64,000 nt of DNA from Psammoneis japonica (GCA_008632985.1 QPGO01000081.1:1-64000); one strand, 5' to 3'; shown: positions 521-26,706, numbered from the stretch's first letter. Numbers and translations: made by a program. The notes: generated from the sequence alone by a model not told the origin.

Positions 521-524
521 ACAG

Positions 525-3350
525 TCTCATGCTGCAGGAGGTCGTGTGGGTCGACCATCGTTGACTCGTGGCAGTTGCCGGCTCGTGGGTTGCAAGGGGG
601 CAGACGAGAATGCTCAAGGATGATCGCCTTGGAGGAATGGGGCAACGAACCCCAGATCCGTTGGTGGTCGGGAGGGGGATGTTTCCATTGGTTGCTGGCA
701 AGGCTGGGACCATGGGTGCAGGCAGCATTGGCCTGAAGGATGTCAATGTCACTGTCGATTTCACAGAACACATCATTGGATGGTTCCTTGGAGCAGACGT
801 CGTGTGCGTGTGTGGCGCGGCGGGGAGCTCAAGGTGTTGTCTTGGGTTGAAACGTGCTGTCGCACTGAGCCGCCGCTGAGAGGAGCAAGCCACAATGTTG
901 ATCGCATGTGAGGCTCTTGCCACTCTGCGTGCAATGTTGATCAGCTTGGTTCTTGATGGCGCAAAGTTCCTTGACAGGATGTGCGGCATTCTCAAGCATG
1001 ACGTGCTTCTGTCCTTCAGAGAAGTGGTCACTGGCCGGGATGAGGGCCTCGCACTTGCGCAACTGATCCTGCCAATGAAGGATGAACCCATGGGTCAGAC
1101 CTTTCCAAGTGCCATCACCAAGGCATGCAGTGGTGAGGTGCATGAGCAAGGTGGAGGACTCGACAGATGCACGGGTGGAGGCAAGCGCACACTCGGACAA
1201 GGCGCGGCAGATGGTCTGGGCGTCAGAAGACCCCACATTTTCGTGAATGAGAGCCTTGCCCTTGTCGGTGAGAAGGATGTGTTTGAAGAATGCGAACATG
1301 TGCTTTTGCTGTTCAGCAAAGAGCAGTTTGTCTTCAGGACTGGTCAGTTTGTACGTCGAGTCTAGAATGCACTCAACGTCTTGGGCACGGGCTTGCACCA
1401 CAAGTGAGGTGTGCCAAGTGTGCCACTGCTTGTCAGATTTGAGAGCCATGAAAGCAGTGGGGTCACGCTTGATGCCTCGCTTGAAGTCTCGCACTGGGTC
1501 GCGTGCCTTGGTGGGGCCAGTGATGTGCAGAGGTGCAAGAGGTGAGCTGCCGATGGACACAGAAGACATGCAGTTGATGGGTTCCAGTCCCAGGTGAGAC
1601 TTTTTGTGACATTGGGCCCACAGAATTCCATGTGCAAGCTCCGCAGTAAAATTGCCAAGCAATGAAAATGTGAATGATCACCAACAGAAAAAGAGGCAAT
1701 TTTGCGAACGCATCTCCTCCTCCACACTTGAAGTGCATTGTTGACAGCATGCCCGGGTACATTCTTCAGACATTCAAGAACATGCCCAGTGCATTTTTAT
1801 TGTCATAAATGCAGAAAACAGAAAGCCTTTGGCTTCGCAAAACAGGCAATGTGGAACAATTTTTTACAATGGAACACGTAGAAATGCACGTGCGAAACAT
1901 GCGACGGATGACAAAAAACAATTGTGTCACAGTCCAGCAGCACGAGGTCCCACCTGGAGCTGGAGCGCGTCAGTCGGGGCTGAGGCGGCAGGCAAGGAAC
2001 TCATCATGCATGAACAATGAAGAGTCATTGGCAACATCAAGGCCCTTGTGTGCTTTGACAATGCACAGACTGGCCAGAGCTGCCAACATGTTCTTGTGAC
2101 CTCAGGGCAATGGGACCACATTGGTGCCGTTGTCCCACTTGAGCGAGTCGCTTTGGGAAAGCATGAACGTGAGCAGTTCTTGGTGCAAGTCCATGTTGTC
2201 ATGGGCCAGAGCCAAATGAAGAGGACTTCCAGCACCTTGGGCAAGCACAGTTCCAACAACGTGTCTGAAACCATCGGTTTGTTGCTGACGAGTGAGAACC
2301 ATGGTGGGGACAAAAGCGGTGTCAGGGCAAGCGATTCTTGTTGTTGGGATGCAGAGGCAGACTTGAAACTTGGGTTGGAATGGACTTGACTTGAAACAGA
2401 CTTGACTTGAAATCTTGAACCATGTTAAAATCAGAAGTCGCCGGGCTGTGCTATCCCGTTTGTTGTCAAGTGCTAAACTTCCCATCCGGTCCGCAGAGTT
2501 GTGCCGGCACGTCCGAACCCACAGCCAGCGGCGCTTTGGGTTGCTTGCAAGTGGAGCAGCGGGTTGTAAACCCCTGCAGGCAAGCTGACTAGAGGTGGAC
2601 AAGACCCCTGAACCGTTCTTATTTTGTGTCAGTTGGATTTCCCGATCAGGCGCTGTGGACGAACGAACAAATGTGGGAAAACACCCTCGCCCCAACGCAG
2701 GCTGCAATCACAGCTGCTTGCTCTCACAGTTGTCCTCGTGGACCTGGCAGAACTTTAGAGCACCAGCAGTCCAGGGCAGATCAGGTGCAATGGACTCGGT
2801 GTGCTTGTAGAGTGGCAGCAAAGCCGGAGTCCAAAGAGTGGGTTCAAGTTCTTGGCCGTGAAGATGCACATGTGTCAAGTGACGAAGATCCTTGAACATG
2901 CAGGGTTCTTGACCGTCAACCGTTGAATGGGTGTGCAAGGCGATGAGGATCAAGAATGGATTTGAACACAACCGTTGAATGCATGTCTTCAGCAATGGAA
3001 GGCAGCACAATCAATCCAGATGTCCAGCGGCAAGGAGACTTGACGGTGACGTTAAATTCCTGCCGATGCTTGGCATTGAATGCGCGTTGACTTGCCGATG
3101 CACGCAGAACACATGCGGAGGTCCACGCAGAATTGAGGTGGCATCGTCGGTAAATCAACGACGATGGCGGTTGCTCAATGGGTTGACAATGAGCAAGACT
3201 GTTAATCTGACAGAAATTGAAGGGCAAATGGCAAGAATTCAAACAACAACTCCTTGCTGCTGTCTAAATGGCAGATGAGTCTCCTCTCAGGGAGCAGAGA
3301 CCGTTGCAGGAGCCGAAAGACGTGTGAGTCGGTGTGATTGGGCTGCTGTC
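525..3350 (-). mobile_element. Truncated Ty1/copia (CoDi-like, family A): partial 5' LTR 3208-~3350, leader, degenerate gag
   Basis: Gag motif RDFKRGIKRDPTAF..LKSDKQWHTW (ORF 829-1662); colinear with the copy at 18560-21231. Confidence 0.9.
1576..1971. mobile_element. MITE (~395 bp)
   Basis: TIR gatgggttccag..ggtgagac / gtcccacc..ctggagcgcgtc; flanks AGTT/AGTC; empty site gcAGTCgggg near 19610. Confidence 0.9.
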
Positions 3351-3351
3351 A

Positions 3352-4300
3352 TCAAGCGCGATTTCACGTTGACGATCTGCTGTCGAGTCACGTGAATCCC
3401 AAAGCAAATGACAAGTTTCTCAAGTGGTTGAACAGAGAATGCGGAAGCCATGGCAAGGTCATGGCAACAAGAGGAAAGAAACATGATTGCCTTGGCATGA
3501 CACTGGATTTCACCAAAAAAGGAAAACTCAAGGTGGACATGAGAAAATGCACAGGATCGATGATCGATGACTTCCCGGAAAAGATTAAAAGCACAGATTC
3601 TGCAATGACACCTCCAGGAGAGAACCTGTTTGAGGCAGGCGGCACAAGACTGAACCAAGAGAAAGCACAAACGTTCCATGTGTGGGTGGCCAAAGGACCA
3701 TTTTCATCCAAGAGGGGCCACATGGACATGCACCCTGCAACATCATTGCCATGCATGCGAATGAGGGAACCCACAGTTGAAGACTGGGCAAAGTTGGTCT
3801 GGTGTCTGAAACATTTGAATCAGACAAGGAACGAAGTGGCAACGCCAAGTGCCAAGAACCTCCGAGCAGTGAAGTGGTGCATGGACGCGTCATTCGCGGT
3901 GCACCCAGATTTCAAGAGCCACACCGGAGGAGCAATGTCTGTGGGCAATGGAGCCATGCAAGCTGAGCTGGTTGGAGTCGACAACGTGATGACTGTGATC
4001 CTGTGAACAAAGCCATTCATGGAGCACCAAGGACATCCCGTCAACAAGAACATGCCACACCAGGACAACAAGAGCGCAATCTTGTTGGAGACCAATGGTT
4101 GCCGCAGTGCCGGCAAATGTTCCAGGGCACTCAACACAAGACACTTTTTTGCATGCAACCAAGTCAAGAAGGGCAACCTGACAATTGAACACTGCCCTGC
4201 AGATGCAATGATTGGGGACTTTGTGACCAAGCCATTGCAAGGCAAGAAATTTTGCAAGTTTAAACGAGCCGCAATGGGGTGCCAAGGACCCAAAGGCAAC
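3352..4300 (+). pseudogene. Copia RT/RNase H fragment (third family)
   Basis: HVDDLL (=YVDD), DASFAVHPDFKSHTGG, QDNKSAILLE, MIGDFVTKPLQG; disrupted frames. Confidence 0.9.
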
Positions 4301-4399
4301 AGGAGTGGATTCCTGTTTTGTGACATCAGACAAGAATTCTGATGTGCATGGGTGAGAGAGCCCTGTGACCCAGAGAATGATGAATGAGTGTCTTCTTCC

Positions 4400-6740
4400 G
4401 GAACATCATGGTGCAAGAGACACCGAGCATGCAATTGAACAACCATGGATGGCAATGAAGCCGGAGGTGACAATGCAAATGTGGCAGCAACTGATGCTCA
4501 TGTGTTCAATGAATGCACAAACTGTGAGCTTGTCACCTTCAACGAGTGCAATGAGCTGGCAGACAGCTGGCCCAACAACTGTTTGCTTGAGATTGCAAAG
4601 ACATTTGACATGCCCACAAAAGACAAGGATCTGTTTGTTGAAAAAGGAGAGTTGGACGGGAGACGCTGACCCACAGATTGGTGGAATGGAAACAAGACCA
4701 TGACATTCGACCGACTCATGATCCTAACCAGATAGAAGGACCCAATGAAGGAAGACTGCCATCACCAAACCCTGTCCCAGCAAGAGACACATTGGATCAC
4801 ACACAGCTTGCAGTGGACCTGGATGACAAAGGCAGACGCAACTCTGAAGAAATGAGGATGGGATGGAAAGAAAAATGCTGCACAAGGCTCGAGGCAATGG
4901 TGACGGTGTTCGAAATGTGTGAGACATGGACACCGACAATGCAAGAATTTATTTCCGCCAACACCCCAATGATCTCTGTTCACAACAATGTGGAGACCAT
5001 CATTGACAGGACGAGGTGGGCAAGCGTTGGAGCACACACCACTGAATCCCATTGGAAATTCCTGGCAAAAAGGACAGAAGCACACAAAAAAAACAAGACC
5101 GCGCCATGTGCAAGTGCAAGGAAACCGTGACAAATTGGCTTTCAACAGGCTAGAGATTGATCGCATGGCAACGTTGTCAATTTTTCAAGGCATGCCAACA
5201 TGTGGCATGGACAGTCTTGAGGAATGCGGAGGACCAATGCATCCAGGCCGCAACAACACTGCCAAGAGACCAGATCATTGCAAGCTTGTCATGGACAAGA
5301 ATGGAGTCATGTTCGATGCACTTAAATTGTCAATGTTCTTCAGAAGAGAGATGAACTTCATGTCAGATTTACGGAAGCATTGCTGGGTGGCACACATGAT
5401 GAGCTTTCTTGCATTGACTCCAAACGCCGTGCACCAGTGGATCCGAGAACAGAGCGAACAGTCAAATGACCAAAATGACACGCTGAGTGATGTGCGGCAA
5501 GAACTGAAGAGACAAGATCTGATTGTCATGTTCGTTGACTGTGTGAAAGATGCAACCAATGCATTCAATGACATGCTGGACTGTTCAAGTGACAAACAAG
5601 ATGAGTGGTGTTTTGCCTTGGGGGTCGACATTCAAGGAGAAAGGTGGAACATTTTCTCTCGATGGTGATGCCAACCTGTGTCGTGGCCCAAGAATTGTTG
5701 GAAGAACAATTGGAGTGAGTGTCAGGAGTGTGTCGGAGCAAGTTACACCAGGGTGTCAGAGAACCCAGAAACAGTTGAAGTGTCAACATTTCATCAAACA
5801 ACCCCAGTGGTTCCCCATTTTCTTGCAAAACAGCACCCACAGGAAAACACAAATGGTTTTTCAAAATGAAGTTTAAATCAGGGCAAAATTTTCACACAGG
5901 CCAAGAAATGTTCAGCAATTTGTCATGCAATGCTCAGGTGGCTGGACACCCCAGTTGCTGCAAAATGCAGCTTTCATTGTTTTTGCACTTTTGCTGCAAA
6001 CAGTTTGCAAACCAAACATTGTTTTCACACCCACAATGTGACAAGGTGTCAAACTTCCTGCGTGTGGCTTGCAGAGATGTCAGTCACCAAGCTGACAGCT
6101 TCTGCCTGCACAGCAACCACTTTCTTCTTCCCTTTCTTTTTGTTCACTGTCCTGGCAAGAGCACCCTGGAAATTTGAGCAATCTGGGCATGCTTTGGCAT
6201 TGACACAGCGACTTTCATGATGCAGTGCTTGCTCTTGCTTCTCCTGATCCACCAGCTGATGGGGCCTTTCCAGCCCCTTTGTCAACCATCCTTCATGGCT
6301 CTGCCCTTTTCCTTTGTGATCATCCACACCGTCTTGCCCCAGCACTGGCATCACCAGCAATCTTGAACTTTTCTGGATCAGTCGCCTCCCCTTGACAATG
6401 CCATTTTCCAGTGTTGTCATGACCATCGCCATTTTCTGTGTGGCTGCATTTGTTGTGGAGCTTAATTTTGTTCGACATGAGCAAATCAAAGCTTTGTTCC
6501 TTGGAGAGTGTTTTCTCCAATGGCAGTGCAAAAGCTGCAAAGAAAGGCACAACCTCACAAAAATCCACATCGAAATCCCCACCTGGAGGTTTCTTCCAAG
6601 GGTTACAATGCCATGAAACAAAGTTGCGTCATGGTGGAAAAAGCTCATGTTTGTTGGAATGCTACAGAGTTTAAAACTAAGAAAGAACACGAAATAGAAA
6701 ACCATGGCATTGTGCTACACAAGACCAAGTTGCAGTGAGC
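4400..6740. other. TpA-depleted degenerate sequence, probably TE-derived ORF remnants
   Basis: Same TpA loss as neighbouring TEs; fragmentary protein-like frames at 4445-5668 (+) and 6049-6705 (-); family not recognised. Confidence 0.4.
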
Positions 6741-6847
6741 AGTGAGTGAAGGAAAAGGATTTCTTTTTATCATCCATTAAGCGAGCAAGAGCAATAAGTC
6801 AGGAAACATTGTGTGTACACCCTGGATGGCTGAAAATTTCTGGTCAA

Positions 6848-9191
6848 TCAAAGGTGGCCACTATGTGATCTTGGCACATTTTCTGAGATTATTGTAAGGC
6901 GCCCCTTTGTGGCTGAAGCAACTTTCTTTGCTGTCTTGGCTTCATCTTTTATGCCCATGGTCTCCAAACGAAGAGATTTAACCGCATCACTAATGGTCAG
7001 TTCAACTCGGCAGAGAGAAAAAGCCACTTTGAGAATATCGTGGCGGATCATATCGTTGTTTGCCTGTGCTTCGTTTATGAGGCTTGTGAAAGTGTCATAC
7101 CAACTCACACTTTCATGGTCTTTCACCATTGCCATTGCGGCACTGCAGCACGTCCACGCCAAGAGCAGACCCAAGCTGAATTGATCGTGCCATTTTGCGT
7201 AGGCCCGATCCGTTCTTTGACTTTTCCACGACCACCCATCGGTTCCAAATGGCACTCGCAATGGATCAAACTCATCAGCGTTCACAACGGCAAGGTTAAA
7301 ATCACAAAGAACGAAGCGCTCGTGTCCTTCGTCACTACGTCGCACCATAACAGCACTGTCTTTTATGTCGCAATGAGCAATGTTGAGCTCATGAAGGGTC
7401 TCAACAGCTTGTAAAAGATCCATGCAAGCTGCCAAAGCACGATATGGATTCGATTGCAGGCTCGTCCAATCAACCTCGTCCAGTTCCTCCAAGAAAATGA
7501 CTCGATCCGTAATACAGACGTCGATGGGCTTCACCAATGTGGCACACGACGGTGTCGCTGCTGTTTTCGTGAGGACGAATACTTCGGTGTCAAATGGATT
7601 CCAGTTAATCTCATCGTACTCCTTCCAGTCCAAACGCTCGCTTTTCCGCACACAACGACTCCTGCTACAACGATGTGTTGCCCAACCCACTTCAGACCAA
7701 CCCGTTCGCACAAAGAATTTCTTGTCATCAAACTCATAGTTGGCGCAACGGCAGTTGTTTTTTGAGGGCTTCTTTAGTTTCAAAGGAGTTTTCGCGTTCG
7801 TCGACCCCGACTCGAAACGCCCTCCGCCGGGAGCCCGTGGAACATCGCCATCATTGTTGTTGCCAGATGCATCACCCGGCGTATTCGGTAGATTGGAAAC
7901 GACTTTCTGCCTTTTCGCATTTCTGGACGCATCCCCGTGGCTCGGCCGAATAAGTAGGCATGCCTCGACAATGCGTTGGATACGGATGCACGCATCTTCA
8001 AATAATTTAGTTTTCCCGCTTTCGCTATTGGGATGACGAGCTTCATCATGTCGCGCATCGAAACTCTCACGTTGAATTGGGACATGTGCGGGGTCCGTGC
8101 CCAAGGTTCTTTTGCACATCGGTGCGGCAAAGACGTCCAAGGTTACCAAACAAATTTCACCCTCAACTTGAATCATCGTGTATACTTCAAAAATGCAAGT
8201 CTTGCTGTCCGTTCCTGAACTCACAAGAATACCAATGGGTGGAGCGTTGGAAGGGCGCTTCTCCCATACCCGATAAATCTCCATTGCGACCTTACCACGG
8301 TCCCTACTTATTTTATCACCCTCCCCATTCATTGCACTTTCGAGGGTAAGGATGGTTTGGTTGGAACTGCTAGCCATGAGATCATTTTTTCGTTCCGTCG
8401 TTGTTGATTCTTGTATTTTCTTCTCGCGTTGGAAGCAAGGGATCCCATTTGCTTCGAGACACTGCCGCAGGAGGTTGATGTAGAACCCATCAAAGTATCC
8501 TTCGCATTGACCTTGTACCAGATGTCGCAATTCTGAGTTGAGATCAACAAACAAAGAGGAACAGAACATTCTGTAGCGATCCGCAATGTTCTCCCAAAAA
8601 CTCTCCGAAACAGTTGTTTTTGGACTCTTTTGCATTGCCATCTCTAAGTTCAGGTTCTCCAAGGGTACTTTGAATTTAGAATAATTTTCCACCTCCTCCT
8701 TGCGTTTACCTTTGTAACATTTGATAAAGTCTTCGGGAATCGCACGAGGAGGCTCAGCACCCTCGTCCAAGTGGAAAATGCCGTGGCACAGGACGCAACC
8801 TTTGCCATCTTGCTTTTCACTCGATGGGCAAGTGTCAAGATGTTTCTTGAAAAATTCTTTGAGTGTATCAGAGTGAGTTTCCACATGCTGTTGTCGTGGC
8901 TTGTCTGTGAGAGTCACAAACGAAATACTGTAGTGAGAGCAGGTGGCAACATGAAACATACCGCGCAATACAGCAATTTGACAAAACCATGCCCGCACTG
9001 CATCCCGAAATCTCACTTGCGAGCCAACAACAACTCAACTTACCATTCTGCTGCTGTTCGTCGCGATAACTTTGCCGAAGATTCTTTCGTCGCTCAAAAT
9101 CAAAGCTGTTAAACTCTTCCTCTGAAATTGGGAATCTCGCTAGCCATGATCTGTAGTCCTCGTCAATCGATTGCCAATTTGTTGTCGCCAT
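6848..9191 (-). CDS. Two-exon gene (exon 1 9191-9044, intron 9043-8905, exon 2 8904-6848; 734 aa): PD-(D/E)XK-like nuclease plus C-terminal protein kinase, Crinkler-type architecture
   Basis: A GTAAGT donor and a ctcacAG acceptor join MATTNW..QQQN in frame to DKPRQQ. Kinase motifs IAHCDIK, LCDFNLA, GTDGW; REase-like RKNDL..TLESA..RDRGK. Normal TpA/Tyr content. Confidence 0.8.
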
Positions 9192-10330
9192 GTTGTTGTT
9201 GTTGCTTTCTGTTTGCTTGTGCTCGTCTTGGTTTTGCTGTTTCTGTTACTCTCTCTCTTCTCTCTTCTGTTGCTGTCAAATCGGCGAGACGGGCGACGCA
9301 CTCTACAGTAGGGCCCTAGGCCCTACCGGTAGAGACAATACATAGGAATCATTCGGCTCTCAGAGTCATTACGTAGAAATTGTGTAGAAGAGTACCAGAA
9401 ATATTTATACCCAGGCTATCCAGCAGTTCCTCCCAGCCAGAAGGAAGAAGAGAAAAGGAAAAGAAAGCAAAAAACAATCATTAATGAAGTTTTGATACGG
9501 CACTGTAGTGCCATAGTACGTAGTGCAGATGGACGTATGCAGGTACAGACGCGCCACGTGCCGGTGGTGAGGGCGCGCTCCGTCGTGCGACAAGCAGTGG
9601 AGGTGGGCCGTTGAGCAACACGTCGAATTTGGCATGAGGTGTCATGCGTTTATGTGCACAGAAGGATGGGGATCGTCAACGCCTGGAACACAGCACACAG
9701 CAGCAAGTGCACCGCCTCATCATCACGACTTCGTCGTTGTTGCTTTAGAAACAGCAGAATGGTGGAGGAGAACATCGTTCCGTCTGTCAAAGCAGAGGAC
9801 GTGACAGCTCCGGAAGTCGCAGCAGAACTCACGGGCGCCAAAGGCATGACTGCGGCGGCAGTGGCCATGACTGCACTCCGCGCTGCGGGAAGTGCCGTGG
9901 GTGTGTCTGCCGAGTCCAAACACAAAAGGATTTCAGAGAAGCCGGTGCAGCCCCAAAGTGAAAATGGGGAGAAAGCCGTGCCGCCAGAGCCAACCTTTCA
10001 AACATCATGTGGAAGCAACGGTCATGACCAGGGAGAATCCAACTGTCAAGGAGACAAAGGCAGCATGGGCGGCAGCACCACCACAGCCTGGGATGACTGG
10101 TGGGAGATTTTTCACTGAGGAGGAGCTGGAAGAAGTGGGAGCAACAGAGCAGGAGAAGGAGCAAGCAAGGATCCTACGGAACAAGTGCAGTGTGGACAGA
10201 AAAATGACAGAATGGGCGCAAGTTACAGCAGCTAACTATTTGGCAAAGACAACCATAAAAACACATAAATTTCGCACACTCAGACTTTCAAAATCCCAAA
10301 AAATTGAATCCAGATGAATGACCCTGCTTG

Positions 10331-10402: not shown

Positions 10403-11925
10403 GCTGCATTAAATTCTACGTGTTTGTGCCAGGAAAATGCACCTCCAACCCATCCGGCAGGCGTGAGTGACATTTTGTGTGCGAGAAAGAGTTCGTTGGG
10501 GCAGGCGAACAACATCACTCTACGATGCGACTGGTGCAAAATCTTCGTAAATGCACAGACACGCTCTGGAGCATGTCTGTGCAAATTCGAGCTCGTAAAT
10601 GACAAGCAGGGACAAATCACAGTGGTTGTCAGTTCTACATGCAAGTGGCGTTAGCTTCGACTTGTGCGACTAAAATCTCAGTGAATGTTCTGGAGCTCGA
10701 TCGACCTCGAAAATTTTTAAAATTCCTTGCTCACATGCATGAAAGGCTGTTTCATGGAATCCCATTTAATGACACAGAGCTGCATGTTTCAAGATGTTGT
10801 TCCAACATCAAAACTGCTGTGGCATTTGGAGCACCTTCCACAGCCCTTCCCTTTGCTTGTTTGAGTGACCGTTCCTTAGATGTGCTCCAAATGGCAAGCT
10901 TGTTTTGACCTCTGGTGTGGAGATCGATGTTCTTTCCTGAACAAACGCTGATGTCCTGTCACGAATGCAGGCAGTCCATGTGCTGTTGGCGATTGATTGG
11001 TCCACTGTCGCTCATTTGGTGGCCACCGCAGCGTGACATCTCACAATTCTAGAACCTGTTGATGCTGTTGAACACTCTGTCTTGTCTTGCACCCAATTCT
11101 TGGCCATCATGGCAGCACTTGTTCACTTCATCAGAGCCAACACGCCATGATGTTCAACACCTGGAACGGGCATCGCGAACGGCATGACGGTGTCATTGCA
11201 ATGGATCGATTTTTGCGGCAAGCACCATGTTGGCCCCATGGTTGCTCATGCAATCGCTGAGTCTTTTGTGCACATCAATGTTCATGGACATGAACAACAT
11301 GCTCTTGGAGACCAGAGCTGTGATCTGCCAGACATGACGTCAGTGAACTGAATGTTTGATCACGTGGATGGAACATGTTGGCTGAGACACATTGACGTTT
11401 GTGAAATGTGCAACACAATGGTTCATGCATTGAGGTCTGCTCATTGTGTGCATTTGACACACCAAAATGCGTCATGAAACTGCTCAGACACTGCACATCA
11501 ACCTCGCCTGCTCACGGGTTTGCCAAGCAGAAACCGCCAAATCGGCGCGAGAACCAAACATTCTCTCACTTTTCTCCACTCACACAAGTGGATGCTCACG
11601 CATTGAAGTGCAAACAACAATTGACACACCATGGCCGCTGCCGCAGCCAACGCGTTCCAGCTTCAGGTGGGACCTCGCACTGCTGCACTGTGACATCAAT
11701 GGTTTTTTGGATCGCGTCGCATGTCGCGCACGTGCATTTCTGCGTGTGACATCATACGAAATTGTTTCATGCTCCCTGTTTTGCGAAGCCAAAGGCTTTC
11801 TATTTTCATCATTTGTGAGAATGAAAATGCGCTGGGCATGTTCTTCAATGTCTGAAGAACACACCCGGGCAAACTGTCAATGACAGAAATTGAAGGCAAA
11901 TGGCAAGAATTCAAACAACAACTCC

Positions 11926-13035
11926 TTGCTGCTGTCTAAATGGCAGATGAGTCTCCACTCAGAGACCATTGCAGGAGCCAAAGGACGTGCAAGTTGGCAT
12001 GATCGGGCTGCTGTTGTCATTCTTGTGAGCCTTGTGGCTTGAAAGAAAACTGCACCGTGCACAAACGCGCGGAACTAAAGCACACAAAACTGTGCGCGAC
12101 AAACTAAACAGCACGCGGCATTTCGCGCGCACCCAAATCCAGCTCAAATCCTGTCACTCCCCAGTTTGCTTGAGGAGTCACAGAAACAGATTCGACTTCA
12201 GATGGGATGAAGTTCCAGAACATGAGGGGGCGGAGAAGGTCCCAGACTTGGGAGCAACCCCAGTGCTTGCTGAGAATGTCAGCAGGGTTGCGGGAGCCTT
12301 CGATGAAGTGGAGCTCAAGGTGACCAGAGGCAATTGCCTCACGCACACAGTGGAACGACAGTGCGGTGTGTTGCTTGTGTAACTTGGAGTGCGGGATGGT
12401 GGCACTGTCCACAACTGACTTGTGGGTCAAAGCCAAACTAAGAGGGCTTCCAGCACCTTGGGCAAGCATGGTTCCAACAACGTGCTCGAAACCATCGGTT
12501 TGTGGCTGACGAGTGAGAACCATGGCAGACAAATGATGGTGTCTTGCTGCTGTCTAAATGGCAGATGAGTCTCCGCTCAGAGACCATTGCAGGAGCCAAA
12601 GGACGTGCAAGTTGGCATGATCGGGCTGCTGTTGTCATTCTTGTGAGCCTTGTGGCTTGAAAGAAAACTGCACCGTGCACAAACGCGCGGAACTAAAGCA
12701 CACAAAACTGTGCGCGACAAACTAAACAGCACGCGGCATTTCGCGCGCACCCAAATCCAGCTCAAATCCTGTCACTCCCCAGTTTGCTTGAGGAGTCACA
12801 GAAACAGATTCGACTTCAGATGGGATGAAGTTCCAGAACATGAGGGGGCGGAGAAGGTCCCAGACTTGGGAGCAACCCCAGTGCTTGCTGAGAATGTCAG
12901 CAGGGTTGCGGGAGCCTTCGATGAAGTGGAACTCAAGGTGACCAGAGGCAATTGCCTCACGCACACGGTGGAACGACAGTGCGGTGTGTCGCTTGTGTAA
13001 CTTGGAGTGCGGGATGGTGGCACTGTCTACAACTG
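11926..13035 (-). repeat. 618-bp period duplication of the LTR/RNase H end, with a leader fragment (12420-12545) at the junction
   Basis: ORFs 12032 and 12650 are near-identical and offset by 618 bp; the junction piece matches leader 19840-19960. Confidence 0.85.
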
Positions 13036-15231: not shown

Positions 15232-15690
15232 TGTGTTCGTCTGGGGACATGGCGTGTTTGCAGTTCCGGGGAACTTTGCATCTGTGCTTGCAGCAAGGTG
15301 CAGTGCGGAAGGAGCGAAGCTTGGCTTGGTTGGCCATGCGGAACAGCTTCTTCTGGCACCTTGCGATGGTGCGGAACCGCTTCCAGCCATCAGTGTCGAG
15401 AAGTCTGTTCTCTCGTGCATGGATGGCACAGGTGACAGGGTCGTCCTTGGCGATGATGGCAAGAGGCTCAGACGTGATCTCCCCACTTTCCCATTCAAGC
15501 ACAATGTTGCAGCTTGAGCCTTTCCAGGTTGGGTCATGGGGCTTCAGAGGTCCTTCGTGTGACACAACACGTCGAAATTTCCACACAGCAGTGTCTTCGT
15601 CTTCTTGCTCAATGTGATTCATGATGTCGTTGCAGGCCAGGACTTCCTCGCATTCGTCATTGTTGACAGAGCAGACAAACTCAGTGAGCT

Positions 15691-16079
15691 GACGCGTTCC
15701 AGGTCTAGGTGGGACCTTGCACCACTGAACTGTGACATTGACAGTTTTTTGAATCGCGTCGCATGTCGCGCACGTACATTTCTGCGTGATTTTGGCAAAA
15801 TTTTGCATCATTTTGCAGTGCAATTGTCAGGCGATCCATTCAACAACTTTTAACATTTTTTTCTTCTACGCCATTCTCGAGTGTCTTAAGAATGGCGCAG
15901 GGCAGGCGCATTGTCAAAAACATCGAGTACGAACAGAGATGTGTGTGCTGCAAACTTGGCCGTTTATTTTATGTCGAAGACAAACACATCCATTGACCAG
16001 AGTACGAACTGCAGAGCTTGCACGTAGAATTCTGCGGGGCAAATGTCACAAAAAGTCCCACCTGGGACTGGAACCCGTC
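15691..16079. mobile_element. MITE
   Basis: Same TIRs; TSD AGCT. Confidence 0.95.
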
Positions 16080-17545
16080 AGCTCAGGGTTGCCGTTCACT
16101 TTCCATTTGTGATCTTCGATGGCCTTGACGATGCGAGCTCTGTGGCATTGTCCGTCCTCTTGTGGCTGCATGAGGAAGGTGCGTCCGATGATGTCTTGCG
16201 GGTCGAAAACTGGCATCTTGGGTGTCCTGATCTCCCCATCAGGTGAATCGACGGGGTTGTCTTCGTGGCGAGATTTGATGATGGGTTCAGGTGGCTCCCC
16301 ATCAGGAGGATCAAGACGCAGGTTTCGAACAGCAGGATCGGTGGCAGCGGAACGTACATTGGACCGGCAGAGGATCTTCTGAGTCTCGTCAGAGAGAATC
16401 TTGAAGGTCATCTGGTGGCCGACGTGCTCAGCAATCCCAACAAAACGTCCACGCAACTCACGGGATTCGGACGGCCAATCGGAGTCATCGAGGTGGAAGT
16501 GCACGGGTTCCCACCAGTGAAAGCCAAGCAATGGGCTGATGTCCGGGGTGGAGCCAGTGAGAGTCTCGAGGGGCGTGCGCCAGTGGAGACGTGGGGACGC
16601 TGTGTGGTTGAGTGTGAAGCACACATGCATGAGCGCCAGCAGCCATGTGTGGGCAGGCGAACCGAAACGGTCCATGACAGTGTTTGCCATGCGCTTCACG
16701 GTCTGGTGTCAACATTCGGCAAAGTTTTGGTGTTGCTGGAGACAAACAGGGCTCGTAGAATCCTGAGCACCTTGTTGCTGATCTCAACTTGAGCACGGTC
16801 GCCAATGAGCTTGGATGGAGCACCATGCTCACGGATCTGATCCTCGAGTGTGTTGACAAACTCTTTGTCCGTTTTGGTGCCGCAGACGTCAGTGACAGCA
16901 GACTCGGTGCCAACAAACAGTTGGGCGCTGGTGCAACCAGAGTCGACAGCCGGGGCATCGGCACATGCAGTGTCAGTGGCGACAGGCTCGTTGCGGCGGT
17001 GCACATCAAGGGCGGGGTTGGGCGATTTGCAGGCCTTCTTAAGGTGTGCACCGGCGGGCATGCGGGCGCACTGCGCATTGCAGTCGAAAGCATGACGAAC
17101 CGCATCGGTGGGTTGGAAACCAAAGCAGGGCCGAAGAGACTCGCAGGGGGGGTCCTTGGGCTGCACATTGCGCTCCGGGGGTGGAACGTCGTCGTCCTTG
17201 GGGTCAATTGCGTGCAGATGACACTCGCAGATCAGGTCGTCATTCGGAATGAGGTGGTCATCGAGGGCGGACGCGTGATCGGCAGACAAGGAGGCGGACA
17301 TGATGGCCTTGTTGACAACGACACGGTGATGGTGGTTGCCGCATTCATCAAATGGGTTGGCAGTGGGATCGTCCTGTGGGTCAGAGATCGCGTCGTGCCA
17401 CTGGTCGTCATCAGTGACAGAGTGATCGAGGACGGAAGGATCCCATGTGTCATCACCGGCAAGGATGACATGTGGCAGGGTGTCCCATTCGGCGTCAGTG
17501 TGGGGTTGCATGGCAACACAAGGCAGACCACCCTTGATGTCAATT

Positions 17546-17934
17546 GATGGGTTCCAGTCCCAGGTGGGACTTTTTGTGACATTTGCCCCGCAGAATTCTA
17601 CGTGCGAGCTCTGCAGTTCGTACTCTGGTCAATGGACATGTTTGTCTTCGACATAAAACAAACGGCCAAGTTTGCAGTGCATGCATCTCTGTTCATGCTC
17701 AAAGTTTTGGACAATGCGCCTGCCCCACGCCATTCTTAAGACACTCGAGAATGGTGTAGAAGAAAAAAACATTAAAAGTTGTTGAATGGATCGCCTGACA
17801 ATTGCACCATAAAATGACACAAAATTTCGCCAAAATCATGTAGAAATGCACGTGCGCGACATGCGACGCGATTCAAAAAACTGTCGATGTCACGGTTCAG
17901 CAGTGCAAGGTCCCACCCAGACCTGGAACACGTC
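17546..17934. mobile_element. MITE
   Basis: Same TIRs; TSD AATT; empty site cccAATTgac near 29434. Confidence 0.95.
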
Positions 17935-20900
17935 AATTGGGATGACACAGCCATCAGGGGTGGCGACACATTGCAAGCCATTGGGCACCTTGACAGAGCG
18001 ATCGTTGACATCATGTTTGCACCATTCGAGCTGGCCGCAGGAATGAATGGTCTTGCCTTTTCCCGTGCATGCATGCTGATGGAGGATGGCGATGACGGGA
18101 CCACGCTGTGTCTCAATGACAGCGCCAGCGGTGACAATGGGGATGTCCACCAATTGATGGTCGTCAATGCCCTGAACATCGACTTGGCAAGAGGTGCGTG
18201 CAATGACGCGAACGTCGTCGCCAGCAATGCCGCCGTTGGCTCCACGATTGACTGGAGCACCAGTGCGTGTGGAGCAATGAGCGGAGGCAGAGCAAATGAC
18301 ATTGTGGTTGTTGATGCAGCGGTGAGTGCGGCCGTTGAGTTCCATGTCATCTGGAGCAGCAGGCGAGGTGGAGGGAGCGGCGGATGGGCCCGGTCAACTG
18401 GCATTGGGGGCTTGGTTGGGAGACAACAGGTGTTGCAGATCACCGGGTGGCAGTGGCGTGCGCTTGGTGAGGTGCGCCAGAATGGGATCATCTGAAGTGG
18501 CACCCACATTTGGAGCGGGGTCACCAGAGTCAGCAGGAGTCGTGTTGGACAAGTTGACATCACCATCGCTCCCAAGTCATTGGTCGTGAAGGTTGACCGC
18601 AACGGACTCATGGCAGTTGCTGGCTCGCGGGTTTGCGGGGAGGCGGACGAGAATGCTCAAGGATGATCGCCTTGGAGGAATGGGGCAACAAATCCCAAAT
18701 CCGTTGGTGGTCGGGAGGGAGACGTTTCCATTGGTCACGGGTGAGGCTGGGACCGCGGGTGCAGGCAGCGTTGGCCTGAAGGACGTCAATGTCGCTGTCG
18801 ATGTCACAGAACACATCATCGGATGGTTCCTCGGAGCAGACGTCATGTGCGTGTGTGGCGCGTCGGGGAGCTGAGGTTCGTCTTGGGTTGTAACGTGCTG
18901 TCACATTGAGCCGCGGAGAGGAGCAAGCCACAACATTGATCACATGTGAGGCTCTTGCCACTCTGCGTGCGATGCTGATCAGCTTGGTTCTTGACGGCGC
19001 GGAGTTCCTCGACGGATGTGCGGCATTCTCGAGCATGATGCGCTTCTGTCCTTCAGAGAAGTGGTCACTGGCCGTGATGAGTGCCTTGCACTTGCACAAC
19101 GGATCCTGCCAATGAAGGATGAACCCGTGGGTTGGACCTTTCCAAGTGCCATCACCAAGACGTGCGGTGGTGAGGTGCGTGAGCAAGGTGGAGGACTCGA
19201 CAGATGCACGGGTGGAGGCAAGCGCACACTCGGACAAGGCACGGCAGACGGTCTGGGCATCAGAAGACCCCACATTTTCGCAAATGAGAGCCTTGCCCTT
19301 GTCGGTGAGAAGGATGCGTTCGAAGACGGCGAACATGTGCTTTTGCTGTTCAGCAAAGAGCAGTTTGTCTTCGGGGCTGGTCGGTTTGTACGACGAGTCT
19401 AGAATGCACTCGACGTCTTGGGCATGGGCTTGTGCCACAAGTGAGGTGTGCCAAGTGTGCCACTGCTTGTCGGATTTGAGAGCCGTGAAAGCAGTGGGGT
19501 CACGCTTGACACCTCGCTTGAAGTCTCGCACCCGGTCGCGTGCCTTGGTCGGGTTGGTGACATGCGGAGGTGCGAGAGGCGGATCTGCCAACAGACACAG
19601 ACGACATGCAGTCGGGGCTGAGGCGGCAGGCAAGGAACTCCTCATGCGTGAACAACAAGGAGTCATTGGCAACATCAAGACCTTCATGTGCTTTGACAAT
19701 GTACAGACTGACTAGAGCTGCTAACATGTTCTTATGACCGCGGGGCAATGGGACCACATTGGTGCCGTCATCGCACTCGAGCGAGTCGATTTGGGACGGT
19801 GTGAACATGAACAGTTCTTGATGCGAGTCCGTGCCGTCATGGGTCAAAGCCAAACAAAGAGGGCTTCCAGCACCTTGGACAAGCACGGTTCCAACAACGT
19901 GCTCGAAACCATCGGTTTGTTGCTGACGAGTGAGAACCATGGCAGACAAAAGCGGTGTCAGGACAGGCGATTCTTGTTGGGACGCGAAGGCAGACTTGAA
20001 ACTTGGGTGACAATGGACTTGACTTGAAACAGACTTGACTTGAAATCTTGAACTGTCTTAAAATCAGAAGTCGCCGGGTTGTGTTGTCCCATTCGTTGTT
20101 GAGTGCCAAACTTCCCCGGTCGCAGAGTTGTGCCGGCACGTCCGAACCCGCAGCTGGCGGTGCTTTGGGTTGCTTGCGAGTGGAGCAGCGGGTTGTAAAC
20201 CCCTGCAGGCAAGCTGACTGGAGGTGGACAAGATCCCCGAACCGTTCTCATTTTACATTGGTTGGATTTCCCGATCAGGCAGGCCAGTTGACGCAGGTGT
20301 TGGGCGCTGTGGACGAACGAACAAACGTGGGAAAAACACCCTCGCCCCAACGTGGGCTGCAATCACGGCTGCTTTCTCTCACAGTCATCCTCGTGGACCT
20401 GGTGGAACTGTGGAGCACCAGCAGTCCGGGGCAGACAAGGTGCAACAGACTCGGCGTGCTTGTAGAGTGGCAGCAAAGCCGCAGTCCAAAGAGTGGGTTC
20501 AAGTCCTTGGCCATGGCAGATCAGGTGCAATGGACTCGGCGTGCTTGTAGAGTGGCAGCTGAGCCGCAGTCCAAAGAGTGGGTTCAAGTCCTTGGCCGTG
20601 AAGATGTGTGTGCACATGTCTTCAGCGACAAAGATCCTTGGATGTGCAGTGTTCTTGACCGTTGACCGATGAGCGGGCATGTCAAGGGATGAAGATCAAG
20701 GACAGACTTGGGTGTGACCGTTGAATGCATGTCTTCAGTGACAAAAGGCAGTGTGATCAATCCAGATGTCCAGCGGTGAGGAGACTTGACATTGACGTTA
20801 AATTCCTGCCGATGCCTGGCATTGAATGCGTGCAGACTTGCCGATGTGCGCAGGATGCATGCGGAGGTCCACGCAGAATTAAAACAGCATCGTCGGTAAA

Positions 20901-23818
20901 TCAACAACGATGATGGCGGTTGCTCAATGGGTTGACAATGAGCAAGACTGTTGATCTGACAGAAATTGAAGGCAAACGGCAAGAATTCAAACAACAACTC
21001 CTCACTGCTGTCTAAACAGCAGATGAGTCTCCGCTCAGAGACCATTGCAGGAGCCAAAGGACGTGCAAGTCGGTGTGATGGGCCACTGTTGTTGTTCTTG
21101 TGAGCCTTGTGGCTCGAAAGCAAACTGCATCGCGCGCGTGTGCGTGGAACTAAAGCACACAAAACTGTGCGCGGTGAACTGAACAGCGCGCGACATTTCG
21201 CGTGCACCCAAATCCTGTTCAAATCCTGTCAGTCAATGATGTGTGTCAAGTGTGAAGGAGGAGACACATTCGTAAAATTGCCTCTTTTTCTGTTGGCGAT
21301 CATTCACATTTTCATTGCAGCGCAAATTTGCTGCGGAGCTTGCACGCAGAAATCTACAGGCCCAATGTCACACGGAGTCCCACCTGGGACTGGAACCCGT
21401 CAGCCTTTGCCGCCTGTCTCACGCACTGTGGATGCAATGCACAGACACGTGCCTGCATGGCCGGTCAAGGCTTTCCTGCTGTTGAGGACCTGGAACAGGT
21501 CCCTTTGGCTGAAATCACCACCATGACCAAGGGTGTCATGAAGGGCATGGATGCCGCTGCCAACCCTCAAGTCCGTTTCCCACACCTGGCGAATCGCAAG
21601 TTCAAGGCTCTGCGTGCGTGGGTTGACTGCCGCAGAGCCTAAAACCAAGCCAATCACAGTCGTGATGGTCGCACTGCCTTCTTTGCTCTTGAGAGGCAAG
21701 CTGAAGGATTGGTTGCCGCCAACACCTGCAAGAACCATGCTCCTGCACAGATTGCCACCGCAAAGCACACCGGACGGGGTCGTTTTTCATTTGATCAGCA
21801 CATTCAATGCCATCAGAAAGCCCACAATGACTTGTTGGAGCTGGACGAGCCGGTGGCCGAGACCAAGAAGGTCTCTGATTTCCTCAAAGGTGTCTCCAAC
21901 CCAAAGTTGGAGACTGGAAAGAGTGCAATGGAGGGAGATGCAGCCAAACTCACAGATTTGAAGCATGCCAGCAGCACATGAAAACTTTGGTCGAAAATGC
22001 TAAGAACCGCAATGCTGACACCCGCGGTGTTGCATCAGTCCAATGCCGCAACAACCGGCGTGGATGCCCCGGTGGCAAGCACCAACCTGAGAAGGACAAG
22101 CCCAGGATTCGGGCAGGCCATTGTCCCATTGATGATTGGAACGCTCTTGATGACCCGGAAAAGGAGCAAGTCAAGAAACTCCGTGAAGCAAAACAAGCCG
22201 CAGCGCCCACAAGAAACCTCAGAAGGAGGAATGAACAGTTGTGCCAGCACTGAAAGGTGTGGAACCAACTGTTCCTGCACCTGCTGGCACCATGCATTTA
22301 ACTGGACAATTCCTGAATGACACGCACGTCTCCTTGTCATCTGCTGGACATGCAGATGGCAAAGCAACCAATGGCTTGGACTCGCATGCCGACACGTGTG
22401 CCGTCAGGTCCAACTTCATTGTGCACTCTGATGTTGACCGCACTGTTGCAGCACATCCTCTCTCCAAAGAGCACGAACCACTGAAAAACATTCCTGTTTG
22501 CATGGCTGCTGCCGTGTGGGTTGATCCAACCAATGGACAACCGCATCCATCACTGGTCCACGAGGCTGTGTTTTTTGGGGACAGAATGACAAACACTCTG
22601 CTGTGCCCCAACCAACTGCGAGCAAACGGACTGACTGTCCATGACCCTCCTTGCCAGTTTGATCCAAACAACACACTCTCTGTTGCTTTCCCTGACTTGA
22701 AGATCAGGATGCCTTTGCACGTGCAAGGTGTTGCTTTGGTCTTTGACTCGCACAAGCCGACTCAGGAGGATCTGGAGAACCTTCCCCGGCTGGAACTCAC
22801 ATTGCCCCTGAAGTGGGAACCTTCTGCTGATGCCATGGTGCAAAAGGAGGAGGAGTGTGCATGTGCCAGTGTGCGCCAAGGATCAAGGAAGTCTGATGGA
22901 CAGGCAATGGTGATGAACGCGACCAGGTGTGTTGCTTCAATTCACTTGCACCAAACGTCTCACCACGACGAGAATGTCATTGTGGATGCTGATGATGATG
23001 ACTCTCTGCATCACTGCTTGGTTGCCCAGGTTAATGTCTCCCACAATGACATCAAGGGAGACGGGCCACATGACCGGCATGACCCAGAGGTCCATCCGGA
23101 TTGTGCTGAGCGGAAACGGGCACATGCACTGTTGACCTCGAGTTGTGCATCGACTGTCACACCCGAGACACTGTCCAAGAGGTGGAACATTGGTCTGATG
23201 GCCACTGAGAACACACTCAGAGTTACAACCCAGGCAGGGGTCCGCAATGTCTGCACACCATCCGAACGGAAAGTCCAGAAGAAAGCCCCATGGCTTGAGT
23301 TCCCTGCTGTCAAGGGACTGTTCCACTCTGACCAAATGTTTTCCAAGGTTAAATCGACACATGGCGAGATGGGAGGAAGTGCATTTGCCAACAGAAAAGA
23401 GGGTGTGACAGGTTCTGTCCTTGGAAGAGGACACAGGACCACCCTGATGCTGTCATGTCATTCATGCATGATGTTGGCGCACCTCAAGTTCTTGTGTTGG
23501 ATGGTGCACTGGAAATGGCGGAAGGCCGGACCAAGGACATTTGCAAGGAGAGCACAGGATGCACCAGGAAGTGTCCACCCCGCACAACCTGTGGCAGAAC
23601 CCAGCCAAGGCATCCATTTGTGAGTTGAACAAAAGGGTCCGAGTGACTCTGTGCCAGACTGGTGCTCACAGGCAACCATGGTCCCATGGTGCCAAGTGGA
23701 CATGTGACATCTGGCACATGATTGCGAACAGCACATCGGACGTGGGAGGATGAGTTCCAGAGGAGGAGGTGAAAGGTTCAACACCTGACATCTCATCTCT
23801 CTCTTTGATTGGCATCAA

Positions 23819-24208
23819 GATGCGTTCCAGCCCCAGGTGGGACTCCGTGTGACATTGGGCCCACAGAATTCTACGTGCGAGCTCCGCAGTGCGAGAATTT
23901 AATCAATGCATGTGTTTGTCTTCAACATCAAATGAACGGCCAAGTTTGTGGTGCAATTGTGCCTCTTGCCACTCGACGTTTTTGCAAATGCACCTGCCCT
24001 GTGCGATTCTTAAGACATTGTAGAATCGCGCTGTAACAAAAAATGTCAAAAGTTGTTGGACAGATCGCTCAACAAGTGCACCGTAAAATGACACAAAACA
24101 TCGAAAAAATCACGTAGAAATCTACGTGCGCGACATGCGACGTGATTCAAAAAACTGTCGATGTCACAGTTCAGTGGTGCGAGGTCCCACCTGGACCTGG
24201 AATGCGTC
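23819..24208. mobile_element. MITE
   Basis: Same TIRs; TSD TCAA. Confidence 0.95.
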
Positions 24209-26706
24209 TCAACCTGTTCACTGCTGCACGCCTGTGGCAGAGTTCCCACATGAAAAGAAGTGCATCGGAGTTGGCTTGGAGCAGCCGACAATTGCACTGA
24301 TGACATGGCATTTGTCATTCTGCCTGAACCAGGCAAACCCATCATTCGGAAGGATGCACGGGCCATGCCGGAGGATGATCTTAAAACCTTGGTGATCCAG
24401 ATGGATCTTGCATCAGCCAATCAAGCTCTGGTTGAGCGACTCACCATCCTGGAACAGGAGACAAAGGCTGACTTCCCTGAACTCCCTGATGACTTCATGG
24501 ATGAGTGGGACAATGCTGTTGAACCCGTGGAACCTGACGCTTCCAAGCCCAAGGCTGATGAGTGCACCCTGGAGGGGCTTGACGAGCACCTCACAGCTCA
24601 AGTTGTGCTGCTGCGTGGAGACGAATTGACCCATGCTGGGGTCATTGCGTGGAAGCGGGGTGGCAATGGGGTTCCCATTGGTGCTGGGAACAACAACCCT
24701 GTCCTTGATTTTCTGGGACATGTGACGTGGAGTTCCCGGACGGATCCACTGACTCCCATGCTGCTGCCAATGTAATTGCGGAGGACCCATTTGCCCAGAC
24801 AGATTCTGAAGGCAATGCCTGCCAGATCTTGAAGGAAATGGTCAATCACCAAAGTGATGCTCGTGCCGTTGGGGCTGATGACGGGCGCACAATGACTGAG
24901 ATTGGCAGGCGTGCTCCTCGGATGACAACCGCAGGCATCCTGGGGCCCCCTCAAGGATTTGAAGGAATCCAATCCAGTCAAGGTTGCTGAGTGTGCTGTG
25001 GCAAATGAGGAAGCCAGTGAACCAGCTTTTAACTGGTGGGTCCGTGACATCTTGCGTCGCAGGTTGACAGGATTTGAACAGGATTCAGGTGCGAGCGAAA
25101 TGTCGCGCGCTGTTCAGTTTACCGCGCACAGTTTTGTGTGCTTTAGTTCCGCGTGCACGCGCACGATGCAGTTTGCTTTCGAGCCACAAGGCTCACATGA
25201 ACAACAACAGCAGCCCGATTGCACCGACTTGCACGTCTTTCGGCTCCTGTGACGGTCTCTGAGCGGAGACTCATCTGCTGTGCAGACAGCAGCAAGGAGT
25301 TGTTGTTTGAATTCTTGCCACTTGCCTTCAACTTCTGTCAGATCAACAGTCTTGCTCATTGTCAACCCATTGAGCAACCGCCATCGTCGTCGTTGATTTA
25401 CCGACGACGCTGTTTCAATTCTGCGTGGACCTCCGCATGTGTTCTACGCACATTGGCAAGTCCACGCGCAATCAATGCCAGGCATCGGCAGGAATTTAAC
25501 GTCACCGTCAAGTGTCTGGATTGATTGCACTGCCTTTTGCCGCTGAAGACATGCACTCAACGGTTGCATCCAAGTCTGTCCTTGATCCTCATCCCTTGAC
25601 ATGCCCATTCAACGGTTGACGGTCAAGAACCCCACACATTCAAGGATCTTTGTCGCTGAAGACATGTGCACACACATCTTCACGGCCAAGGACTTGAACC
25701 CACTCTTTGGACTGTGGCTTGGCTGCCACTCTACAAGCACGCCGAGTCCATTGCACCTGATCTGCCCCGGACTGCTGGTGCTCCACAGTTCTGCCAGGTC
25801 CACGAGGACGACTGTGAGAGCAAGCAGCCATGATTGCAGCCTGCGTTGGGGCGAGGGTGTTTTCCCGCGTTTGTTCGTTCGTCCACAGTGCCTGACGCCT
25901 GCGTCAACTGGCCAGCCTGATCGGGAAATCCAACAGATGCAAAATGAGAATGGTTCGGGGGTCTTGTCCACCTCCAGTCAGCTCACCTGCAGGGGTTTAC
26001 AACCCGCTGCTCTGCTCGCAAGCAACCCAAAGCGCTGCTGGCTGCGGGTTCAGACGTGCCGGCACAACTCTACGGACCGGATGGGAAGTTTCGCACTTGA
26101 CAACGAACGGGATGCCACAGCCTGGTGACTTCTGATTTTAAGACAGTTCATGACCTCAAGTCAAGTCCATTTCAAGTCAAGTCCATTTTCACTCAAGTTT
26201 CAAGTCCACCTCCACGTCCCAACAAGAATCGCTTGCTGACAGGATTTGAACAGGATTTGGGTGCGCGCGAAATGTCACGCGCTGTTTGGTTTACCGTGCA
26301 CAGTTTTGTGTGTTTCAGTTCCGCGCGTTCGCGCGTGATGCAGTTTGCTTTCGAGCCACAAGGCTCACAAGAACAACAACAGCAGCCCAATCACACCGAC
26401 TTGCACGTCTTTCAGCTCCTGCAATGGTCTCTGAGTGGAGACTCATCTGCTGTTTAGACAGCAGCAAGGAGTTGTTGTTTGAATTCTTGCCATTTTCCTT
26501 CAATTTCTGTCAGATTGACAGTCTTGCTCATTGTCAACCCATTGAGCAACCGCCATCGTCGTCGTTGATTCACCGACGACGCTGTTTCAGTTCTGCGTGG
26601 ACCTCCGCATGTGTTCTACATACATCGGCAAGTCTGTGCGCGTTCAACACCAGGCATCGGCAGGAATTTAACGTCACCGTCAAGTCTCCTCACCGCTGGA
26701 CATCTT

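Follow-up and report, generated by a model that had tools for sequence, protein, structure and literature searches.

What removed the dinucleotide TA from most of a diatom locus, and from which state did the repeated copies in it mutate? The locus is a 64,000-nucleotide stretch of Psammoneis japonica (GCA_008632985.1, QPGO01000081.1:1-64000; "the window" below means this whole stretch), in which the observed-to-expected ratio (o/e) of TA is 0.19, with CA at 1.52, TG at 1.51 and CG at 0.72. It carries remnants of Ty1/copia (Copia) retrotransposons and other repeats, whose copies differ at many sites by CA in one and TG in another. Here we report that the direction of mutation is from TA to CA or TG. 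The cause is very probably a TpA-specific erasure of silent DNA after its arrival, running alongside a slower decay of CG.

An earlier reading made from the sequence alone (the sequence-only reading) singled out a site just after LTR A, the long terminal repeat (LTR) of the Copia family whose copies A1 and A2 are described below, and claimed that a single TpA position is seen there in its ancestral and both derived states. The four copies are present as described, with TA, CA, CA and TG at one position:

3197-3207, minus strand: third Copia copy, directly past its LTR A; TA state, reverse complement of GATTAACAGTC (GATTAACAGTC in element orientation)
20946-20956, minus strand: Copia copy A1, directly past its LTR A; CA state, reverse complement of GATCAACAGTC
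25341-25351, plus strand: site after an extra upstream LTR A, CA state, GATCAACAGTC
26513-26523, plus strand: site after the 5' LTR of A2, TG state, GATTGACAGTC

In the LTR A alignment all four sites lie 3-4 bases past the LTR end CTGTCA. Two further candidate copies (47016 and 48019, found by the column method described below) align only with a 2-base gap and are not counted. The same reading had also compared two other pairs of copies:

10937-11092, plus strand: LTR B copy (alignment), with the CTTCATCAGAGCC site then at 11126-11138
35284-35435, plus strand: LTR B copy (alignment), with the CTTTGTCAGAGCC site then at 35467-35479
172-536, plus strand: repeat paired with 50242-50632 (85% identical), each copy retaining TA where its partner has CA or TG

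These differences, too, are in the sequence. LTR B starts as ctgaaCAaaCg at 10937 and as ctgaaTGaaTg at 35284, the two downstream sites read as given, and the 172/50242 pair differs reciprocally: among its 32 mismatches, TA faces TG in 2 columns and TA faces CA in 3, while CG faces CA or TG in 9 and CA faces TG in 7.

The pattern extends well past the named sites. All self-matches of the window gave 8692 homologous dinucleotide columns, each position being used once. CA and TG co-occur in 234 of them, as against 5 to 47 for the other seven double-transition pairs (AC/GT 47, AT/GC 30, AA/GG 22, CC/TT 13, CT/TC 12, AG/GA 10 and CG/TA 5), so that the CA/TG pattern exceeds chance. Pyrimidine-purine (Y-R) changes account for 62-94% of all mismatches across 16 copy pairs.

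The polyprotein of the Copia family allows the ancestral state to be read from conserved codons. Its remnants in the window are as follows:

27863-32996, plus strand: Copia (RVT_2) polyprotein remnant A2, almost full-length (tblastn, Pfam; TA o/e 0.00-0.13 per kb)
12818-19621, minus strand: Copia polyprotein remnant A1, inverted partner of A2, 91-97% identical to it (tblastn, Pfam)
505-1710, minus strand: third, partial Copia copy, gag end (tblastn), with the 5' region and an LTR A fragment extending to 3349

Their assignment to Ty1/copia follows from an RVT_2 reverse transcriptase within a long polyprotein and from LTRs with TG...CA ends. Pfam places RVT_2 at 13791-14663 (minus), at 31545-32309 (plus) and, in a different remnant, at 33503-34156 (plus), with matches at 6e-16 and 6e-17, and by tblastn the window Copia aligns to residues 148-1848 of a 1859-residue relative. 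No integrase or protease was matched by Pfam in the open reading frames (ORFs) of at least 100 residues in the Copia copies. As relatives we used 120 polyproteins about 70% identical in the reverse transcriptase region, 46 of them at least 1690 residues long, and the copies were mapped by tblastn.

With these 46 full-length relatives as a protein outgroup, 2623 window codons have at least 15 relatives and a consensus of at least 70%. Conserved Tyr is found at 125 of them, and there the window has TGY 58 times, CAY 47 times, TAC 4 times, Phe 9 times, Trp 4 times and another residue 3 times, but never Arg. Cys or His has thus replaced Tyr at 105 of the 125 sites, and about 96% of testable TA (105/109) has gone to CA or TG. 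Tyr is retained at 3% of its sites and every other residue at 65-95%; with Tyr codons going to TGY or CAY, no CGY among them and the other residues kept, the A:T-to-G:C transitions are restricted to TpA. The TA alleles that survive agree with this direction. All five TA-holding columns with an outgroup call are TA-ancestral, and of the 26 TA in coding DNA, 23 match the consensus of the family.

A DNA-level control gives the same answer. We took 80 related Copia loci from metagenome contigs, with a median TA o/e of 0.74, and counted Tyr-site codons in the 78 that are unedited: 2010 of 2315 start with TA, 35 with CA or TG and 7 with CG. Unedited relatives therefore place TA in the ancestor at these sites, neither CG nor CA/TG, and the direction claimed for the TpA site is borne out. 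The other two loci, which belong to a different Copia element, carry the TA-erased signature themselves. Contig L070 (2766 bases) has a TA o/e of 0.02 and, at 26 Tyr sites, TA 1, CA 10 and TG 8; contig L058 (1884 bases) has a TA o/e of 0.27 and, at 18 Tyr sites, TA 2, CA 7 and TG 7. Since the DNA of L070 and that of the window copies are only about 72% identical, the process also operates in another element, and possibly in another organism.

Could a modified base at TpA in silent chromatin simply have been misread as C or G? Changes that are strand-symmetric and confined to silent tracts are what a chromatin-specific modification would leave, and the platform used for sequencing is not recorded. 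If bases had been miscalled on both strands, however, TA should also have turned into CG, which is seen at 0 of the 125 Tyr sites, and the Tyr-to-His/Cys pattern recurs in the two metagenome contigs with a different Copia element. Contigs of one sample, run X1, which may be the assembly's own source, were compared with 35885-37414 and differ by no other letter and a single 1-letter gap. Such changes have moreover been reported de novo in mutation-accumulation lines in a preprint (10.64898/2026.01.13.699255). We consider a sequencing artefact very unlikely. Variants of the X1 contigs in repeat stretches are paralogue differences and are uninformative on polarity.

The loss of TA follows the division of the window into silent tracts and gene islands, two of which are spared:

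6600-9600, minus strand: spared gene island containing a protein-kinase ORF (6851-9034; TA o/e, ORF)
37400-44600, minus strand: spared gene island around a VPS15 homologue (TA o/e 0.3-0.9 per 200 bases)

Per kb, TA o/e is 0.00-0.26 in silent DNA, which makes up most of the window, 0.38-0.67 in the island cores (7001-10000 and 38001-44000) and 0.23-0.34 in the kb windows that straddle island borders. CG o/e runs from 0.25 to 0.9 in silent DNA and from about 0.85 to 1.2 in gene islands. At a resolution of 200 bases, TA o/e changes abruptly at borders near 6600, 37400 and 44600, and the borders of CG decay do not always coincide with these. The stretch 35885-37414 is of single-copy depth in run X1 and has a TA o/e of about 0.06. 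A single-copy stretch as TA-poor as the repeats suggests that targeting may follow chromatin state and not copy number; it might also be an old repeat that has since diverged, which would look alike.

Flanking bases influence which TA is lost. The 379 TA surviving in silent DNA are most often in TTAA (74), CTAA (74) and GTAA (66), and seldom in ATAG (13), ATAC (12) or ATAT (0). In repeats, with strands pooled, T follows the A in 0 of 36 TA that all copies keep, in 7 of 76 that some keep and in 60 of 212 discordant columns (Fisher 2.9e-5 and 4.6e-4 for the contrast), and CG columns have no such trend. This suggests an order of TAT > TAC/TAG > TAA for the targeted A, and the named LTR A site, a genuine three-state TA site with TA left in a single copy, lies in the most protected context, T-TA-A. 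In element orientation the two strands are hit almost equally, with 58 Cys and 47 His, and runs tests in 5 regions found no clustering of same-strand hits (P 0.31-1.0). The absence of TA-to-CG changes means that one hit removes the target on the other strand, as expected if 5'-TA-3' is read on one strand.

Were the copies hit independently, after insertion, as the sequence-only reading had it? Copies A1 and A2 share 39 conserved Tyr sites. Ten are discordant, with CA in one and TG in the other, and 3 keep TA in one copy, so that at 13 of 39 sites the hits came after A1 and A2 separated; at these sites the claim stands, while the other 26 are concordant, perhaps through shared or parallel hits. 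Small elements inserted into A1 bear on the same point. A1 is broken up by four inverted-repeat elements of about 391 bases, copies of which are found in the window as follows:

59570-59967, plus strand: least-mutated copy of the inverted-repeat element (22 TA, o/e 0.69; flanks o/e 0.05)
1575-1971, 13394-13787, 14841-15232, 15690-16081, 17545-17935 and 23818-24208: further copies

Those inside A1 have a TA o/e of 0.29-0.39, three to nine times the 0.04-0.09 of their flanks. Together with the copy at 59570-59967, these ratios fit a loss that accumulates after insertion. The four elements within A1 (13394-13787, 14841-15232, 15690-16081 and 17545-17935) are absent from A2, and their ends are GACGCGTTCC...GGAACGCGTC.

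In the process that we propose, the silent part of the window, about four fifths of it and made up of Copia retrotransposons, small inverted-repeat elements and other DNA, would have undergone TpA-specific A:T-to-G:C transitions after its arrival. Each TA would become CA or TG, and the product, being no longer a target, would never go on to CG. The process would have come near saturation, with about 96% of testable TA lost; the strand hit would apparently be random at each site, TA flanked as ATA/TAT would go first and TTAA last, and the changes would halt sharply at expressed gene islands. In parallel, an ordinary and slower CG-to-TG/CA decay, as expected of methylated transposons, has removed about 29% of testable CG. 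Of five CA/TG differences between copies, about four then go back to TA and about one to CG. Direction, timing after insertion, flank preference and the admixture of CG decay are shown by the data, and the chemistry is inferred.

The share of CG decay needs closer weighing, as one could suppose that decay of methylated CpG explains all of the CA/TG polymorphism and that TA alleles are rare second hits. CG does decay here. Columns that are polymorphic and made solely of TA, CA, TG and CG number 538, divided into {CA,CG} 154, {CG,TG} 134, {CA,TG} 149, {CA,CG,TG} 35, {CA,TA} 31, {TA,TG} 23, {CA,TA,TG} 10 and 2 mixed, so that 288 two-state columns hold CG. At 202 conserved Arg the window has CGN 120 times, AGR 14 times, a product of CG decay (TGY, CAY, CAR, TGA or TGG) 49 times and another codon 19 times; 49 of 169 CGN-type Arg codons, about 29%, have therefore decayed. 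CG changes to TG or CA and is lower in transposons than in genes, and DNMT5a is reported to methylate transposons in another diatom (PMC9998398). The decay of CpG cannot, however, bring TA o/e to 0.19, nor turn 105 of 125 conserved Tyr into Cys or His without any Arg, and the unedited relatives have TA at the Tyr sites. TA appears in just 2 of the roughly 325 columns with CG, and second hits that could mimic a TA allele are thus rare.

Two estimates apportion the discordant columns. Among CA/TG-only columns with an outgroup call, 19 trace to TA and 5 to CG, without conflicts; where CG or TA is retained, the outgroup calls that same state in 31 of 31 CG-holding and 5 of 5 TA-holding columns. 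Capture-recapture from CG retention in 14 copy pairs assigns 26.1 of 129 CA/TG-discordant columns to CG. By protein outgroup and capture-recapture alike, about 80% of the 149 CA/TG-only columns are TA-derived. For the LTR B pair, 2.0 of 5 discordances are expected from CG, and two copies alone cannot decide the ancestor. CpG decay as the sole source of both the CA/TG excess and the TA loss is refuted, and we hold it to be even less likely than an artefact; it remains a contributing cause, behind about one fifth of the CA/TG discordances. The sequence-only reading, that the ancestor is TA and not CG, accordingly holds where a TA allele (5/5) or a conserved Tyr is seen and fails as a general rule: CG is ancestral as well, given 323 polymorphic columns holding CG, 35 three-state columns with CG and the decayed Arg codons. 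Polarised non-synonymous changes over all coding contexts likewise include, besides 135 from TA, 82 from CG (82/217).

Several observations weigh against TpA-specific erasure and should be set beside it. Three-state columns hold CG in 35 cases and TA in 10, and polymorphic columns hold CG in 323 and TA in 64. The doubly mutated Tyr sites of A1 and A2 are concordant in 26 of 36 cases (P=0.006 against 50:50), and the flank preference is judged against a uniform expectation or against the repeats themselves, not against a measured spectrum. With no strand clustering, a slow site-by-site process fits better than processive bursts of a single-strand enzyme. No enzyme, modified base or de novo event is among the observations made here.

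Some of these points have an explanation. Three-state columns favour CG because TA rarely survives to be seen and CG usually does. The sequence-only reading had held that it would fall if most CA/TG columns traced to CG in unedited copies; taken literally, this is what the three-state columns show, but after correction for survival TA is the source of about 80% of the CA/TG-only columns. The case carries a caution for counts of three-state sites in general: since CG outlives TA, a naive count points the wrong way. The excess of concordance may mean that much of the erasure preceded the split of A1 and A2, or that each site has a preferred strand.

If not in DNA, the changes might have arisen in RNA, by A-to-I editing of retrotransposon transcripts that reverse transcription then fixed before integration. 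Copia elements do pass through an RNA stage, and RNA-editing deaminases prefer a 5' U. Editing of transcripts should nevertheless mark one strand, and in element orientation the hits are shared about evenly between the two; inverted-repeat elements of DNA type and DNA of single-copy depth are affected too; and the tract borders track gene islands, not element ends, while copies diverge after duplication. We regard RNA editing as extremely unlikely.

A family that is TA-poor by nature, or GC-biased gene conversion that removes AT, is in our view no more likely. Some depletion of TA is common in genomes, and the gene islands here stand at an o/e of 0.4-0.67. Native TA poverty is refuted for the Copia family by the related loci, with their median o/e of 0.74 and TA at Tyr codons; the loss also destroys conserved Tyr codons in a dead element and strikes only the TA context, the other residues being retained at 65-95%. 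The opposite polarity, with C-to-T change at CpA producing TA from ancestral CA and TG, as in the repeat-induced point mutation (RIP) of Neurospora, is the least probable explanation of all and is refuted by the Tyr-codon outgroup and the unedited relatives, for although the {CA,TA} (31) and {TA,TG} (23) columns are unpolarised by themselves, TA is depleted to 0.19 and CA/TG stands at 1.5 where RIP would raise TA, the outgroup makes TA ancestral in 5 of 5 columns, and 23 of 26 coding TA fit the consensus.

Likenesses to known systems narrow down what TpA-specific erasure may be. RIP in Neurospora and other ascomycetes turns CpA into TpA and depends on duplication. It shares with the present case dinucleotide-specific transitions, transposons riddled with missense changes, spared genes and paralogues that are mutated differently. 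Its chemistry and product are opposite, as RIP raises TA and here TpA is destroyed, and DNA of single-copy depth, perhaps an old diverged repeat, is erased here as well. CpG methylation-deamination decay is found in the same DNA, where it has the same CA/TG products and leaves CG o/e at 0.25-0.9 in silent DNA, but it acts on CG and not TA, it is slower (29% against 96%), and its borders are not always those of TA loss. Cytosine methylation of diatom transposons is documented, as are RID-like DNMT4 genes of unknown function (PMC9998398).

The closest likeness is to the chlorarachniophyte Bigelowiella natans, in which mutation-accumulation lines gained de novo TpA-to-TpG/CpA mutations (Mettrop et al., bioRxiv 10.64898/2026.01.13.699255). 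According to that preprint, the mutations strike integrated DNA of giant viruses and virophages, the spectrum in ordinary genes stays normal, and adenine deamination is the proposed chemistry. In both cases A-to-G and T-to-C changes occur only at TpA, 1-kb windows poor in TpA and rich in CpA+TpG lie in clusters, and DNA that is not of the host is the target, with genes spared; here the targets are transposons and silent DNA, not viral inserts. Runs of at least three 1-kb windows with TpA at most 0.43 and CpA+TpG at least 1.52, as defined in the preprint, are found in this window as well, e.g. at 1-6000 and 45001-51000 (TA 0.06-0.15; mean of CA and TG at least about 1.6), our o/e being computed per strand and not as the preprint's pooled Rho. 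The two cases differ in host and target, a diatom here with Copia, inverted-repeat elements and other silent DNA against an alga with integrated viruses, and in depth, with a TA o/e of about 0.1 here against 0.45 in the virus region there. CpG decay runs alongside here, and the preprint text available mentions neither CpG nor diatoms; de novo events were seen there, in some of the lines only, while the present case is built on sequence. Among the literature matches listed, TpA erasure is in print only in this one 2026 preprint, on an unrelated alga, and nothing relevant on TpA loss or RIP-like mutation in diatoms was found among them.

The chemistry would involve an enzyme or a DNA mark acting on 5'-TA-3' in silenced chromatin, for example adenine deamination to inosine or a mispairing oxidised thymine; we put an enzyme-driven or mark-driven process at about even. 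Somewhat more tentatively, and by analogy, we suggest a chromatin-directed system in diatoms that marks or edits 5'-TA-3' in silenced DNA, perhaps an old genome defence of the SAR (stramenopile, alveolate and rhizarian) lineage, an age that would follow from the same signature in a rhizarian alga. Candidates within such a system are a DNA adenine deaminase, or a heritable modification of thymine or adenine with A:T-to-G:C change as a by-product.

If this is true, one dinucleotide has been lost from most of the non-genic DNA, against the usual GC-to-AT bias, and the reading of transposon ages, GC content and pseudogenes in diatoms changes with it. It would imply a so far unknown activity, specific to 5'-TA-3', that edits or marks DNA, offer a second lineage for the search for the enzyme proposed in Bigelowiella, and make the diatom system the TpA counterpart of CpG methylation decay and a mirror image of fungal RIP. 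The window adds a clean test of polarity, a split of about 4 to 1 between TA- and CG-derived discordant columns, a flank preference with TAT the most and TAA the least mutable, and two environmental contigs with the signature.

The remaining repeats of the window are listed here for completeness:

26237-26512, plus strand: LTR A, the 5' LTR of A2 (TGACAG...CTGTCA; alignment)
25065-25340 (plus), 20957-21231 (minus), 11881-12156 (minus), 12543-12774 (minus) and 3208-3349 (minus, partial): other LTR A copies (alignment)
46015-46293, 47019-47294 and 48022-48297 (all minus) and 48999-49278 (plus): further LTR A copies (alignment)
46015-49010, minus strand: tandem array of three units (about 1 kb each, 96-97% identical), each joining LTR A to short pieces of the Copia coding end (self-match, tblastn)
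33527-35071, plus strand: different Copia remnant (RVT_2; Pfam, tblastn), of a family at 20-55 times single-copy depth in X1

The LTR A copy at 48999-49278 stands inverted beside the 1-kb tandem array of 46015-49010. Copy A2 runs into a gap of 140 N (33000-33139), where its 3' LTR should begin, followed at 33140-33267 by 128 bases that match their own reverse complement at 78%; the assembly there may be unreliable. An LTR pair of one element was considered as a clock and is unusable, the 3' LTR of A2 being partly in the gap and the LTRs of A1 not resembling a pair. The motif that follows LTR B, YRTCAGAGC, might be a primer-binding site for initiator tRNA-Met, in which case TA would be favoured there; it occurs 3 times in the window against 2.96 expected, which is no rarer than chance. 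In run X1 the stretches 33440-35534 and 43915-46000 reach about 10 to 55 times the single-copy word depth (~111), so that the second Copia family and the repeat to the right of VPS15 are abundant in the genome.

No real gene in the window is longer than the VPS15 (PI3-kinase regulatory subunit 4) homologue (ORF 38506-43770, minus strand), whose best named relatives are from pennate diatoms (45-53% identity). A tRNA search of the window found none. Within the left gene island, a 600-base patch at 9601-10200 has just 3 TA and, over most of its length, CG near expectation; it is a small TA-poor tract adjoining normal sequence. Just upstream of the gag region of A2, at 27345-27891, lies a 42-base tandem repeat of 13 units (83% matches) whose units differ at Y-R steps, one column having all four states.

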